Assembly (NCBI GenBank): GCA_034440375.1
Contig: JAWXBZ010000162.1
Span: forward strand, 1-25,123
DNA length: 25,123 bases
Direction of reading: 5' to 3'
Origin: Candidatus Eiseniibacteriota bacterium
GTDB lineage: Bacteria > Eisenbacteria > RBG-16-71-46 > JABDJR01 > JAWXBZ01
Shown here piece after piece: positions 2 through 16,668 of this stretch. The notes beneath the pieces were generated by a model. That model did no database searches. It was not told the DNA's origin and was given only the letters and a program-made list of their open reading frames with translations. Position 1 is the stretch's first letter. Every line of letters begins with the position of its first letter. Made by a program: the position numbers and the translations under genes.

Positions 2-1018
2 GGCGCCGCGGCGCCGTTGTTGACCAGGAAGGACTTCGTTACCGATCAGGAAGTCCGCTGGTGCCCGGGCTGTGGTGACTACGCGATCCTGAATGCCGTA
101 CAACAAGTATTTCCGAAGCTCGGCATCCCGCGCGAGAAGTTTGTGTTCATCGCCGGGATAGGCTGTTCGAGTCGCTTTCCGTATTACATGAACACGTACG
201 GCTTCCACACCATCCACGGCCGGGCGCCGGCCGTGGCCACCGGCGTCAAGCTCGCCAACCCCGACCTGTCGGTGTGGGTGGCCACCGGTGATGGCGATGC
301 CCTCTCGATCGGTGGCAATCACCTTATCCACGCGCTGCGCCGAAATGTCGACATCAAGATCCTGATGTTCAACAACCGTATTTACGGCCTGACCAAGGGG
401 CAGTATTCACCCACTTCTGAAGTCGGCAAGAAGACCAAGTCGACGCCCTACGGTTCGGTGGATGCCCCGATGAACCCCATTTCACTGGCGCTCGGCGCCG
501 AGGCGTCGTTCGTGGCGCGATCGGTTGACGTGTACGCCCAGCATCTCCAGGACGTCCTGATCCAGGCGGCCAACCACAAGGGCTCCGCCTTCATCGAGAT
601 CCTGCAGAACTGCAACATCTTCAACGATGGGGCCTGGGAAGAGGTGGCCGACAAGGGGGTGCGGGACGATCGAAATGTGGACCTGCGTCATGGGCAGCCG
701 ATCATCTTCGGCAAGGCCCGGGACAAGGGGTTTGTACTTTCCGGATTCGATATCAAGGTGGTCACGATCGGAGAAGACGGCATCACCGACAGGGACCTCC
801 TGGTTCATGACGCGTCGGATCCGCAGGGGCGGCTGGCCTGGATTCTGTCGCGGCTCACCTGGCCGGATTATCCGGTGCCTATCGGGGTGTTCCGGGCCAC
901 GGAGCGGCCGACGTTCGAGCGGGCGATGCATGAGCAGCTGGTTCGGGCAAAGGCCGACAAGGGGGCGGGGAGCCTCGAAAAACTGCTGTCCGGCGGGGAA
1001 ACCTGGGTGGTGGGGTAG
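2..1018 (+). CDS. korB: 2-oxoacid:ferredoxin oxidoreductase beta subunit (TPP-binding); true start probably upstream of the window
   Basis: N-terminal WCPGCGD, GIGCSSR, HTIHGRA, TPP-binding GDGDALSIGGNH...NNRIYGLTKGQYSPT, and EILQNCNIFN. The frame is open back to position 2. Substrate (2-oxoglutarate or other) is not determinable. Confidence 0.93.
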   Translation, partial: GAAAPLLTRKDFVTDQEVRWCPGCGDYAILNAVQQVFPKLGIPREKFVFIAGIGCSSRFPYYMNTYGFHTIHGRAPAVATGVKLANPDLSVWVATGDGDALSIGGNHLIHALRRNVDIKILMFNNRIYGLTKGQYSPTSEVGKKTKSTPYGSVDAPMNPISLALGAEASFVARSVDVYAQHLQDVLIQAANHKGSAFIEILQNCNIFNDGAWEEVADKGVRDDRNVDLRHGQPIIFGKARDKGFVLSGFDIKVVTIGEDGITDRDLLVHDASDPQGRLAWILSRLTWPDYPVPIGVFRATERPTFERAMHEQLVRAKADKGAGSLEKLLSGGETWVVG

Positions 1019-1026
1019 GAACGGAT

Positions 1027-1073
1027 AAAAAAAGGCGGGAGGTCGGCGGGCTGCGTTCGCCAACCTCCCGACC
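1027..1073 (-). terminator. Intrinsic terminator on the minus strand
   Basis: Minus strand reads GGTCGGGAGGTTGGCG-aacgcagcc-CGCCGACCTCCCGCC followed by T7 (A7 at 1027-1033 on +). The T-tract orientation and a G-U pair that would be a C-A mismatch on + both favour the minus strand. Confidence 0.8.
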
Positions 1074-1275
1074 GACGGTCCTGGACGAATCCAGGAACGC
1101 GCTTGGGGTCAGGGGTCACCTTTGCAGGATTTCTGCCCCTGAATGCTGCAGGGAGGGTTCGCTCGGGCCATCAACCCGGCTTGCCCTCCCTACCTCGCAC
1201 AATCTGAACTCTCGGATACTCTCTCGGTTTGTCATCAGCAGGTGTGTCTACCCACTGGCGACAAAGAGAGATTAG
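1027..1275 (-). ncRNA. Candidate structured small RNA, family not recognised
   Basis: Five consecutive hairpins (1219-1270, 1148-1193, 1109-1142, 1079-1096, 1034-1073). On the minus strand they show GCAA and UUCG tetraloops, several G-U pairs and a terminal U-tract. No credible ORF. The 5' end is approximate. Confidence 0.6.
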
Positions 1276-1286
1276 TCCCGGAATAT

Positions 1287-1342
1287 GTAAATGTCGCACC
1301 CGTAATGGTAAAGAGTTGTCAACGCTGTAACCGACTTGTAAA
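1287..1342. promoter_or_regulatory. Phased GTAAA-like direct repeats, possible OmpR/CpxR-family binding array
   Basis: GTAAA 1287, GTAAA 1308, GTCAA 1318, GTAAC 1327, GTAAA 1338 (spacings 21, 10, 9, 11 bp) in an AT-rich patch directly upstream of an OmpR-family two-component operon. Confidence 0.4.
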
Positions 1343-1376: not shown

Positions 1377-1385
1377 TGTTATACT
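1377..1385 (+). promoter_or_regulatory. Putative extended -10 promoter for the kinase/regulator operon
   Basis: TG-t-TATACT, about 40 bp upstream of the ATG at 1426. Confidence 0.45.
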
Positions 1386-1425: not shown

Positions 1426-3210
1426 ATGCCCCAGCAAAGCCCAAGATGGCGTCGGCACGGCCTCTGGCTGGCTTTCCTGGCTGTTCTCGCGCCGCTTGGC
1501 ATCTTGCTGTTTCTGCAGTACCGAACGCTTCGGAGGCTCCAGGACGTCTCCCAGACGGCCCAGGCAGCGGTGTTTGACAACTACCTCGGGGCCATCGTCT
1601 CGGAGATCCGCTATTTCTACCTCACACGGGCCGAGACGGTCCTGAATGTCTCCTCGTCAGCCCTGGCCGCCCAGAACCTTGAGGAGATCCGGCGGGGGTG
1701 GCAACGGGCCGACCTGAACGGCGTGAAGCGGCTCTACCTCCTCACTGATGCCGCTCCGACAAACCAGCAACTCCTCATATTTGACCCCGTGGAGCAAGAT
1801 TTCACCACGGCCGTCGACTTGCGCGAATCGCAGTCGATTCTGCGGGGCGCCACGCTCTGGGTTACCGGCGTCTCGACCAGCGGCGACCAGAAGGATTCCC
1901 CCCGTCTTCGGGTGGACGAGCGGGACACCGATTTTCGCCAGATCATGAAGCCGATCCTCGATGACGAGGGGCAGGCCATCGGCATGGCCGGCATGGTCCT
2001 CGACGAGGATTACGTGAAAAGGGCCCTGCTACCCATGGCGATCCAGAACGCCCTGCCGACCTACTTTCAGGACGCCAGTCGGAACGACATCATGCTGCGG
2101 ATCCGGGATCTCGACGACCGGATCATCATGGGGACACGCCGGACGGACGTGGCGGGGCCGCCGATTCGACTCTCCTTTCCTTTTGTCTTTCGGGACTGGA
2201 CCCTCGAGATCCAGGGCGCCACACCGGCCCCGGCGCAGCTCCTTCAGGCCAATTTCGCCCTCTGGATCACGCTGTCGCTGCTCGTGGCGGGGGTCCTGGC
2301 CGTGGCCATCGCGCTGGCGTTGTCGGCGGCGGCCCGGACGATGCAGCTTTCCGAGATGAAAACGGACTTTGTGTCGAACGTCTCACATGAGTTACGCACG
2401 CCGGTGGCCTCGATCCGCGTCTTTGGCGAACTCCTTCGAGGGGGTCGGGTCCAATCGATGGAGAAGGTCCGGGAATATGGCGCGGCCATTGAATCTGAAA
2501 GCCGACGACTTTCTGATCTGATCGACAACGTCCTGGACTTTGCCCGCATCGAATCCGGCCAGAAGACCTATCGGCCAGTTTCGGCCGACTTGACGCCTCT
2601 CGTGGGCACCGTTCTCGATGCCTTCCGGGGCCGTCTGCACAACTCCGGGCACGATGTGGTGGTGGAAATGCCCCACGGACCGCTGCCGGCCGTGGACATC
2701 GATGCGGACGCCTTCGGATTGGCGTTGAACAATTTGCTCGATAATGCCGTCAAGTACTCAGGCGATTCCCGGAGGGTCTTTTTGCGCCTGCTTTCCAGTC
2801 CCGGTTCCGTCATCATTGAAGTTGAGGATGAGGGCATCGGGATCCCCGAAGAGGAGCAGGCCAAGATTTTCGAAAGATTTCACCGGGTGGGGACGGGTTC
2901 GGTGCACGACGTCAAGGGGAGCGGGCTTGGCCTTGCCATCGTGCAACACATCATGAAGGCTCACCATGGAAGGGTTGTGGTCGACAGCAAACCGGGACGG
3001 GGCAGCATCTTTCGCCTTCACTTCCCGGTTGCCCGAACACACCCTGCCACCGGGGCGAACACGGAAACCATGACCGCCCGCCGTGCCTCGGTGACTGAAG
3101 TTGACCACCAGATGACTGAAGTTGACCATCAGGTGACTGAAGTTGACCACCAGATGACTGAAGTCGACCGGTCGATGAGTGAGCCCGACCCCCGGGTGGG
3201 AAGAGGATGA
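1426..3210 (+). CDS. Membrane sensor histidine kinase (two TM segments, extracytoplasmic sensor, HisKA, HATPase_c)
   Basis: H-box [13 protein letters not shown]-box [11 protein letters not shown]1 VEDEGIGI, F-box IFERFHR, G2 GSGLGLAIV; two hydrophobic stretches; GAGG at 1417-1420 before ATG 1426 (the ORF track starts at 1393). Confidence 0.95.
3091..3174 (+). repeat. In-frame 21-bp tandem repeat, 4 copies, encoding (V/M)TEVDHQ
   Basis: gtgactgaagttgaccaccag / atgactgaagttgaccatcag / gtgactgaagttgaccaccag / atgactgaagtcgaccggtcg. Confidence 0.95.
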
Positions 3211-3218
3211 GGATCGCC

Positions 3219-3899
3219 ATGCCCCGTGTACTGATTGTCGAAGATGATGCCTCGATGGCCGTCGCTCTGAAAGACGGTTTCGAGTATGAAGGTTATGCTG
3301 TCACCGTGGCCAAGGACGGCGCAGCCGGCCTCCGGCTCGCGAGCGAAGCCACACCCGACCTCATGATCCTGGACGTCATGTTGCCCAAGATGAGCGGGCT
3401 CGACGTCTGCCGTCAGATCCGCTCCGACGGCCACAAGCTGCCGATCATCATGCTCACCTCGCGCGGGCAGGAAATCGACAAGGTGCTGGGGTTGAAACTC
3501 GGTGCGGATGACTACATCACCAAGCCGTTCGGCTTCCTCGAACTCATGGCCCGGGTCGAGGCCCTGCTTCGTCGCAGCAACGGGCGCAACGATGCCGCGG
3601 AGTCCTACCAGTTCGGCAACGTATCGGTGAACTTTCGGAAGAGCGAGGTGCAGAAGAACGGCGAGTCCGTGGATCTGTCGCCCCGCGAGTTCCGGCTGCT
3701 CAAGTTCCTGATCGAGCATCGCGGCGAGGTGATCAGCCGTGACCAGCTCATGGAAAGCGTCTGGGACTACGAGAACGCGCCATTGACCCGCACGGTCGAC
3801 ATGCACATGGCCAAGCTCCGCCGGAAGATCGAGGAGCGGCCGAATGAGCCGGCCTGGCTCGTGACGGTGCACCGGGTGGGGTACAAGTTTACCGGTTAG
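3219..3899 (+). CDS. OmpR/PhoB-family DNA-binding response regulator
   Basis: VLIVEDD, phosphoacceptor [25 protein letters not shown], winged-helix end [15 protein letters not shown]...VHRVGYKF. Alternative start at 3207 overlaps the kinase stop. Confidence 0.96.
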
Positions 3900-15459: not shown

Positions 15460-16668
15460 CTAACCCCGCTGTTCGATCGGACCGACTTTTCGCTCGCGGG
15501 CTCCGTCGTAGAGCTGCTTCGGGCGGAAGATCTTGTTCTTCTTCGAATCGACCTGTTCCAGGTAGTGGGCCAGCCAGCCGGCCACGCGGCTCATGGCGAA
15601 GAGCGGCGTGTACAGATCGACCGGGATGCCCATCTTCTGGTAGACGATGCCGGAATAGAAATCGACGTTGGGAAATTTCTGCTCGCGGAGCGTCGGCGCG
15701 GCGCCGAACTTGGGATGCGTGGCAAGGTATTCCTCGAGCTTGATGGCCGTGTCGTACAGCGGCGTCCGGCCCAGCTTCTTGAAGACGGTTTCGTTCATTT
15801 CCTGGAGGATGACGGCGCGCGGATCCTTGACCCGGTATTCGCGATGGCCGATGCCCCAGATGGTTTCCTTTGCCGCCAGTGCCGACTGGACCCACGCCTC
15901 CACGTTGTCCGCCGAGCCGATCTTGGCCAGCATGTCGAGGACCCGTTCGTTGGCGCCGCCATGCAATGGACCGCGCAGCGTGGCAATGGCCGCCGTGACG
16001 ACGCTGTACGGATCCGACAGCGAGGACGCCGTGACCCGCGTGGCAAACGTCGAGGCGTTCATTTCGTGCTCGGCGTGGAGCACCATGCCGGCGTCGAAGA
16101 CCTTGACCAGGTCCGGGTCGGAGTCATGGCCGTCGAGCATGTACAGGAAATTGGCCGAGTGATCGAGATCGGCCCGTGGCGCGATCGGGTCAAGACCCTG
16201 GCGCACCCGGTGCCACGCCGCCACCATCGTCGGCAGCTTGGCGATGAGTCGGACGGCCGCCTCGTACCGGTACTGATGGACATGCGGATCGCCCTGGGCG
16301 TGGAACGGGATATTGGAGAAGTACATGCCCGTGGCTGCCGTGGCCACCTCGAGCGCCAGCATCGGGTGACCGCCCACCGGCAATGCCTTGAAGACCTCGA
16401 TGAGGGCCGGCTGCAGCGCGCGATGATCCTTGAGCGATTTCTGAAAGACATCGAGCTGCGCGGTCGTCGGCAGATCGCCGTTCAGGAGGAGATAGGCCGT
16501 CTCCTCGTAGGTGCAATGATGGGCCAGGTCATCGATCAGGTAGCCGCGGTATTCGAGGACGCCAATATCGCCGTCCAGGTAACAGACACTGGAGATGGCC
16601 GCCGGCACTTTTTCAAGGCCGGGCCGGTACGGAATTTCCTGCTTGTCCTCGACGGTTTCCACGATCAC
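15460..16668 (-). CDS. gltA: Citrate synthase (short, ~400 aa type; methylcitrate synthase not excluded)
   Basis: LEYRGY, LHAEHEMNASTF, GPLHGGAN, GIGHREY-x-x-x-DPR, PNVDFYSG, SRVAGWLAH; GTG start preceded by GAGG. Confidence 0.93.
   Translation of the reverse strand: MIVETVEDKQEIPYRPGLEKVPAAISSVCYLDGDIGVLEYRGYLIDDLAHHCTYEETAYLLLNGDLPTTAQLDVFQKSLKDHRALQPALIEVFKALPVGGHPMLALEVATAATGMYFSNIPFHAQGDPHVHQYRYEAAVRLIAKLPTMVAAWHRVRQGLDPIAPRADLDHSANFLYMLDGHDSDPDLVKVFDAGMVLHAEHEMNASTFATRVTASSLSDPYSVVTAAIATLRGPLHGGANERVLDMLAKIGSADNVEAWVQSALAAKETIWGIGHREYRVKDPRAVILQEMNETVFKKLGRTPLYDTAIKLEEYLATHPKFGAAPTLREQKFPNVDFYSGIVYQKMGIPVDLYTPLFAMSRVAGWLAHYLEQVDSKKNKIFRPKQLYDGARERKVGPIEQRG

Follow-up and report, generated by a model that had tools for sequence, protein, structure and literature searches.

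What is encoded between the korB-like gene and the sensor kinase gene at the beginning of this Eisenbacteria contig, where five back-to-back hairpins lie between two genes that both read on the plus strand? A sequence-only reading of the window (the whole 25,123-nt stretch of DNA that was analysed) had proposed a free-standing, possibly undescribed small RNA on the minus strand, with its own terminator. All five hairpins and the U7 tract are present at 1027-1275, each in the sequence as that reading listed it. Its claim that the stems fill the korB-kinase gap holds for 1027-1275 but not for 1276-1425, which is a conserved divergent promoter region. The proposal itself is supported by the lack of a match in Rfam, the single copy, a homologue, a promoter and a terminator. 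Judged by these sequence comparisons, minus-strand positions 1262 to ~1028 are most likely an undescribed, single-copy structured sRNA gene of ~235 nt. The predicted RNA, read along the minus strand, opens with a hairpin at its 5' end, continues with an A/G-rich unpaired linker and three more hairpins, and closes with an intrinsic terminator. The features of the region are listed here; L059, a metagenome relative, and X19, a variant contig, are introduced below.

2..1018, plus strand: korB-like gene, TPP-binding subunit of a 2-oxoacid:ferredoxin oxidoreductase (Pfam TPP_enzyme_C, 1.9e-33); convergent with the RNA
1027..1033, minus strand: U7 tract, predicted 3' end of the RNA (from the sequence; U8 at the equivalent site of L059)
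1034..1073, minus strand: hairpin 5, predicted intrinsic terminator, 13+2 bp with a 9-nt loop (-30.2 kcal/mol, z -5.3)
1075..1101, minus strand: hairpin 4, with a UUCG loop (-13.6 kcal/mol)
1109..1142, minus strand: hairpin 3, 9-bp outer stem and variable apex (-14.5 kcal/mol; outer stem invariant)
1148..1193, minus strand: hairpin 2, two-tier stem (-31.3 kcal/mol, z -5.9)
1194..1230, minus strand: linker, unpaired and A/G-rich (from alignments and folds)
1231..1262, minus strand: hairpin 1, inner part, 5'-terminal (-13.7 kcal/mol; start predicted near G1262 from the position of the -10 element)
1269..1274, minus strand: putative -10 element of the RNA promoter, TAATCT (the proximal box is 11 nt upstream; unchanged in L059 and in X19)
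1286..1342, minus strand: five phased direct repeats, presumed response-regulator boxes and presumed common to both divergent promoters
1377..1385, plus strand: putative extended -10 (TGnTATACT) of the kinase operon promoter (conserved in L059)
1426..3210, plus strand: sensor kinase (Pfam HisKA, HATPase_c); divergent from the RNA
3207..3899, plus strand: OmpR/PhoB-family response regulator (Pfam Response_reg, Trans_reg_C)

Eight nucleotides separate the korB stop codon from the U-tract. In the window, korB is without a terminator of its own (1019-1026), and korB read-through transcripts would be wholly antisense to the RNA. In L059, 83 extra nucleotides follow korB (2550-2632 of that locus) and include its own plus-strand terminator hairpin. 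For the kinase and the regulator, no NCBIfam equivalog scored above its own cut-off. An assignment to the Cpx system was rejected, as the regulator reached 183.9 bits against the CpxR equivalog cut-off of 341; it is a generic member of the OmpR/PhoB family. At the C-terminus of the kinase (window positions 3130-3200, plus strand) there are approximately four tandem copies of a TEVDHQM/V-like heptapeptide, which are absent from L059.

The hairpin cluster is real and well past chance expectation. The minus strand of 1020-1285 folds at -128.3 kcal/mol (z -7.6), a stability reached by 0 of 200 shuffles, and the same strand of L059 folds at -126.1 kcal/mol (z -5.2); folds started at the predicted transcription start gave z-scores of -5.5 and -5.3. 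The plus strand yielded -121.0 kcal/mol (z -5.0) in the window and -112.8 kcal/mol (z -2.3) in L059. The earlier claim that the non-Watson-Crick positions are G-U on the minus strand and C-A on the plus strand was borne out by a 67-pair consensus of the window and L059 (RNAalifold). This consensus contains six G-U pairs in the window and four in L059; all ten of these wobble pairs can form on the minus strand only, and the plus-strand mirror gives A-C mismatches and zero G-U pairs.

A GC-rich stem-loop followed by a U run, the pattern of an intrinsic terminator, is found on the minus strand. The stem of this hairpin 5 is unchanged in L059, where 38 of its 40 columns are identical. On the plus strand the same hairpin folds at -30.6 kcal/mol, and no U run follows 3' of any hairpin on that strand of the window sequence. 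A promoter and terminator consensus scan of positions 900-1500 made no calls. For the terminator, this is because its loop is 9 nt long and the scan accepts a maximum of 8; the promoter part of the scan uses thresholds that leave out promoters with a weak -35 element.

The earlier claim that the element belongs to no known RNA family agrees with our search of the whole 25-kb window with the 4227 models of Rfam 15, which gave 0 matches at gathering scores. A permissive search of 950-1450 returned three matches with E values of 1.5-7.1 and 14-20 bits, compared with gathering scores of 60-100. The best of these sub-threshold matches, Atu_C6/EcpR1 (RF02500; 19.9 bits vs 60, E 1.5), was set aside as a chance-level match between GC-rich hairpins, hairpins 4 and 5 aligning loosely with its model. 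6S RNA (RF00013), which usually has one main copy per genome, was also rejected: the 6S RNA of this genome sits on another contig (G000:C180:3200-3385, minus strand, 53 bits, above the cut-off), and the contig of the window (C162) had no match. A second 6S-like match of 30.4 bits, below the threshold, lies at G000:C85:37792-37914 (plus strand). CsrB/RsmZ-type sponges are marked by GGA motifs that recur in hairpin loops and by CsrA/RsmA as a partner; here, GGA occurs inside stems only, and CsrA (PF02599) was not found in the genome, which is 93.7% complete. Hfq-dependent sRNAs of the enterobacterial type occur where Hfq is present and have an intrinsic terminator with a U tail; Hfq (PF17209) was likewise not found in the 93.7% complete genome. 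The check for dispersed copies showed the element to be single-copy and not REP/MITE-like. In its own assembly (264 contigs, 3.96 Mb), one copy was found by blastn and one by the covariance model, and the remaining seven blastn matches were 15-26 nt long with E > 0.9.

A homologue was obtained by a metagenome scan with the kinase protein. Two of the 80 loci kept exceeded 40% identity: L058, which is the window's own sequence, and L059, in which the kinase is 67% identical. L059 has the same order of korB, opposite-strand RNA, promoter region and kinase, and 287 of 366 positions over the RNA and promoter are identical to those of the window (E 4e-81). The collection of homologous regions thus yielded a syntenic site at which the stems are retained. 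The X19 contig is a third, closer variant that spans 1068-1393; within 1068-1262 it has seven substitutions, of which five change the apical loop of hairpin 3 and two fall in pairs of hairpin 1. As for the other runs, two 151-nt contigs from X11 are identical to the window, X14 covers 1309-1393 only, and run X8 gave no contig for the region. The 22 runs listed for the stretch included no RNA run. The match to the window ends after 1393 in both the X14 and X19 contigs.

All 67 consensus pairs are kept in L059, with two compensatory changes (hairpins 1 and 4) and four one-sided changes via G-U. In hairpin 1, the changes are A-U to G-C, G-U to G-C, C-G to U-G and U-G to U-A; hairpin 4 has one compensatory change (U-A to G-C) and one change of G-U to G-C; and the 17 pairs of hairpin 2 are invariant. 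X19 differs in hairpin 1 at 1234 (G-U to G-C) and 1260 (C-G to U-G), and pairing survives these changes on the minus strand only. Relative to the window fold, L059 lacks three pairs of hairpin 1, one pair of hairpin 4 and the hairpin 3 apical stem. The outer stem of hairpin 3, as first described, is kept, but the apical CCU(GCAA)AGG stem drawn above it is absent from both L059 and X19; this apex carries a 2-nt indel in L059 and five substitutions plus one insertion in X19. In the linker, the run AACCGAGAG is retained in the window and L059. The window linker also contains, at 1205-1230 (minus strand), a tandem duplication of 12 nt (two copies of CCGAGAG and five further bases) that is absent from L059.

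Between the window and L059, 126 of 134 paired columns (94%) and 54 of 105 unpaired columns are identical, a contrast inflated by the fact that these same two sequences supplied the consensus structure. For comparison, identity at four-fold degenerate sites is 0.48 over 166 sites of korB and 0.51 over 221 sites of the kinase gene. Even allowing for the built-in bias, the alignment indicates that the stems are clearly much more conserved than neutral sites, which counts against a decaying remnant. The unpaired columns diverge at approximately the neutral rate, which argues against a long conserved seed. The covariation check, with two full sequences and one partial variant, was not significant: 120 of 500 shuffles matched the observed level.

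Within the intergenic region, conservation is highest in the promoter part, upstream of the stems. The boxes read TTTACA (1286-1291), TTTACC (1307-1312), TTGACA (1317-1322), GTTACA (1326-1331) and TTTACA (1337-1342) on the minus strand and are GTAAA-like on the plus strand. Their spacing is 9-11 bp, with one empty turn before the proximal TTTACA. X19 is unchanged in the boxes and in the hexamer, and the only base that it changes within the array is the inter-box base 1333. The 11-nt spacer (1275-1285) varies in L059 and X19, the latter differing at four spacer positions. A four-unit version of the box array has one match in its own genome and is hence unique. Elsewhere in the genome, at G000:C14 ~15796-15830 (plus strand), there are three TTTACA motifs at 10-nt spacing, to which this regulator or one related to it may also bind.

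Promoters activated by OmpR/PhoB-type regulators have direct repeats spaced ~10-11 bp apart, with the proximal repeat ~10 bp upstream of the -10 element and replacing the -35 element. Repeat phasing, an 11-nt distance and a candidate -10 element are all seen here, and all are conserved in sequence. The survey of related promoters comprised 37 sequences: 35 kinase-family loci (L152-L186), the window and L059. Orthologues of the kinase sensor domain are found in G001, of the same family, and in G028 and G034 (L182), of another family of the class. Two proximal boxes were detected in 28 of the 37 sequences, and 26 of these 28 have TAnnn[T/A] 10-12 nt downstream of the boxes (background 1.8%). The complete arrangement of box array, 11-nt spacer, TAnnn[T/A] hexamer and a purine seven bases past the hexamer is found in the window, L059, G001, G034 and G028. 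Because of the spacing in related promoters and the invariance in X19, we place the -10 element at 1274-1269 and the transcription start, which is likely on this comparison, near G1262. Another placement, with TGCGACATT or TACATA as the -10 element and a start near 1278-1283, was dropped since related promoters put the -10 element at 10-12 nt (26/28). It should be noted that a start at ~1262 would make the outer CUCUC/GAGAG promoter DNA, so that the RNA would open with a 5'-terminal hairpin. Of the first stem as originally drawn, the inner part stands, but the outer CUCUC/GAGAG (with UU/AA), whose pairs never vary, is probably upstream of the start; the 5' end of the element probably shifts from 1275 to ~1262. 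Binding of the boxes by the neighbouring regulator is assumed, from adjacency alone.

On the other side of the divergent region, the ATG of the L059 kinase (2986) is located 5 nt past the -10 hexamer, and this sequence arrangement suggests that the kinase mRNA is leaderless in L059. In the window, the aligned kinase start is the ATG at 1426, and a TTG at 1393 adjoins the predicted transcription start.

What do relatives encode in place of the RNA? The divergent gene in G001, G028 and G034 codes for a secreted protein of ~165 aa with a PDZ domain (Pfam PDZ_2, 3e-13). In 25 of the 35 loci, tblastn detected a PDZ gene that precedes the kinase and is divergent from it; the ten loci without a match include L153 and L183, which have nearly no upstream sequence. 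In the window and L059, the RNA occupies the slot of this divergent PDZ gene. With the query used, no small PDZ orthologue was found in the window's own genome, where PDZ domains occur in larger frames only (best E 5.7e-6), and a tblastn search with two PDZ proteins found no trace of the gene in the RNA regions (best E 0.18).

The same promoter architecture is found across Eisenbacteria and Acidobacteriota, always divergent from an OmpR-type two-component operon. The module represented by L152-L186, which consists of the kinase, the OmpR-type regulator, the TTTAC boxes and the divergent small PDZ protein, was observed in MAGs of Acidobacteriota (Thermoanaerobaculia and others) and Eisenbacteria. 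Its leaders are long (~100-250 nt). We know of no description of a kinase/regulator/box-array/PDZ module. The output slot of the module is variable across loci. In L165, L166 and L175, as well as upstream of the PDZ gene in L161, L168, L173 and L174, the promoter drives a lipoprotein-like ORF of 83-109 aa that has a signal peptide with a Cys and a C-terminal CxxC-like motif; the PDZ gene comes next in some loci. In the Acidobacteriota MAGs L163 (~1360 to 1285, minus strand) and L186, the box-array promoter is followed by a ~72-nt terminated transcript, and there is no PDZ gene. These predicted transcripts end in a stem-loop plus U7 (L163) or U5 (L186), and they may be a second RNA output of the module, independent of the first. 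The 8-mer AACCGAGA is common to the L163/L186 RNA and the window linker, which could be chance.

The origin and distribution of the RNA were examined with a covariance model, R1, built from the two full sequences (window and L059). Among the 35 kinase loci, its sole match was the leader of G001: R1 matches the 5' UTR of the G001 PDZ gene at the position of hairpin 2, with 18.2 bits and an E value of 0.0011 over 39 kb. When the model was rerun over 741 bases, the E value was 2e-05, and the two-tier pairs survive base changes. An alignment of seven leaders gave no consensus structure. By this sequence likeness, at least hairpin 2 appears to descend from the leader of a lost PDZ gene. R1 found no match in 150 other genomes of the class, and blastn of the RNA against 40 relatives gave short, chance-level matches only (best E 0.001, 45 nt). 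The relatives' loci L029-L049 carry other genes on the downstream side of korB and no counterpart of the RNA (L040 being without downstream sequence), and an exact 22-mer across the junction of hairpins 2 and 3 had 0 matches in the genome contig collection. Within the searches made, the RNA seems confined to one genus-level lineage. As it was found neither in the nearest genus (G001) nor in the 150 other genomes of the class, it would be young.

The best explanation overall, in which we place moderate confidence, is a regulator-driven, terminated RNA of ~235 nt that would replace the PDZ output and act as a riboregulator in trans. The phosphorylated OmpR-family regulator of the adjacent operon would bind the five TTTAC-type boxes (1286-1342), and the proximal box, 11 nt upstream of TAATCT, would substitute for a -35 element. 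The regulator would activate transcription from near G1262, and transcription would end at hairpin 5 and U7, 8 nt short of korB. The RNA would be the main transcriptional output of the sensor system in this genus, replacing the secreted PDZ protein. It would act in trans, either by base pairing via short unpaired conserved elements, which we favour, or, less likely, as a protein-binding scaffold, and it would function without Hfq or CsrA. Candidate contacts are the invariant loop of hairpin 1 (AGACAC), the linker run AACCGAGAG and the CAGCAUU lying between hairpins 2 and 3. In a crude duplex search with the linker, none of 3895 candidate translation start regions was an outlier (best -39.7; mean -20.4, sd 4.0).

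Some of these observations would also be expected if the RNA were an orphaned leader and terminator, which we consider rather unlikely. The PDZ gene would have been lost, the remaining transcript would act only in cis by stopping an antisense run into korB, and the promoter would have persisted since its boxes also serve the kinase operon. The likeness of hairpin 2 to the G001 PDZ leader, the end of the RNA 8 nt from the korB stop codon, the target scan without an outlier, the near-neutral divergence of the unpaired parts and the restriction to one genus-level lineage are all consistent with such a remnant. However, a terminator alone would suffice for that role, yet the paired columns of hairpins 1-4 are 94% identical, compared with ~50% at neutral sites, and show compensatory changes. 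Moreover, in L059 the distance between the RNA and korB is 83 nt, and korB in that locus is followed by a terminator of its own.

Conservation concentrated in the stems (126/134 paired vs 54/105 unpaired columns) could instead reflect a protein-binding or decoy RNA, whose conserved stems would titrate a protein, possibly a factor acting on the hairpin of the PDZ leader. The length and multi-hairpin form of the RNA fit this idea, as does the presence of hairpin 2 in the cis-acting G001 leader. We regard it as unlikely, however: there is no repeated loop motif, GGA is found within stems only, CsrA and Hfq were not found and there is no candidate partner, and the stem bias is partly a product of how the structure was derived.

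It is very unlikely that the hairpins are a plus-strand feature, namely the folded 3' UTR or termination region of korAB mRNA. The plus strand does fold well (-121.0 kcal/mol, z -5.0), its terminator hairpin is equally stable (-30.6 kcal/mol), and korB of the window is without its own terminator, but six window pairs and four L059 pairs become A-C mismatches on that strand, no hairpin is followed by a U run, and the promoter and U-tract are readable on the minus strand only. In L059, the plus-strand fold is weak (z -2.3) and korB terminates upstream of the element.

A small protein-coding mRNA is highly improbable. The window contains an ATG-started frame of 39 codons on the minus strand (1116-1235), but its ATG is missing in L059, where the frame ends differ and there are 2-nt and 1-nt indels, and no ribosome-binding site was seen upstream. 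None of the small ORFs in the element is conserved between the window and L059, and the longer minus-strand frames are without Pfam matches. A dispersed REP/MITE-like repeat or a chance cluster of GC-rich hairpins, which the GC-rich genome and its ubiquitous chance-level, short stem-like matches might suggest, is scarcely credible given that blastn and the covariance model each find the element once in the 3.96-Mb assembly, that it is conserved at the syntenic L059 site and that 0 of 200 shuffles fold as well.

The favoured reading, a regulator-driven riboregulator in the PDZ slot, has analogues among known systems. CpxQ is a short, Hfq-dependent RNA. In cpxRA of Escherichia coli and Salmonella, a strongly regulator-dependent divergent promoter yields a transcript that gives both a small periplasmic protein and a regulatory RNA, CpxQ originating from the 3' UTR of a coding mRNA (PMC4817254). 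With its OmpR-family operon divergent from a regulator-type promoter that has an RNA output, cpxP/CpxQ is the closest analogue in logic, and the resemblance is one of logic only. Unlike CpxQ, the window RNA is ~235 nt long, has its own predicted start and no ORF, and would act in a genome where Hfq was not found; unlike cpxP, the ancestral protein is a PDZ protein, and no sequence similarity was found.

MicF and OmrA/OmrB are OmpR-dependent sRNAs, and OxyS/oxyR, GcvB/gcvA and SgrS/sgrR are pairs in which the sRNA gene is divergent from its own regulator. The predicted gene resembles MicF, OmrA/OmrB, OxyS, GcvB and SgrS in being free-standing, with its own predicted promoter, an intrinsic terminator and presumed regulator sites in a divergent intergenic region; unlike them, it has no Rfam match, and the window RNA is longer and more structured. 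SreA and SreB are riboswitch-derived sRNAs and an example of sRNAs that derive from mRNA leaders or from what is left of lost genes. The resemblance of hairpin 2 to part of the PDZ gene's 5' UTR in the sister genus is a likeness to this type, but here, unlike SreA/SreB-type sRNAs, the coding part is wholly gone and three further conserved hairpins follow.

The unusual feature of this locus is an RNA in a slot where relatives carry a protein gene, and none of the catalogued families matches it. Eisenbacteria are, to our knowledge, a phylum without cultured members and with no known sRNA biology; our literature search for Eisenbacteria found no paper with noncoding RNA or sRNA terms in the title or abstract. 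The locus provides a concrete, bounded sRNA candidate for this phylum, with a predicted promoter, start and terminator and a clear evolutionary context. We suggest only tentatively that, in one Eisenbacteria lineage, an RNA effector built from the leader of a lost gene could have replaced the PDZ effector and its output/feedback role. Such a swap from protein to RNA at the output slot of the module may have occurred more than once (L163, L186). The kinase/regulator/box-array/PDZ module spans two phyla, and this locus makes two ideas testable: the birth of an sRNA from an mRNA leader after gene loss, and the substitution of an RNA for a protein as a sensor system's output.
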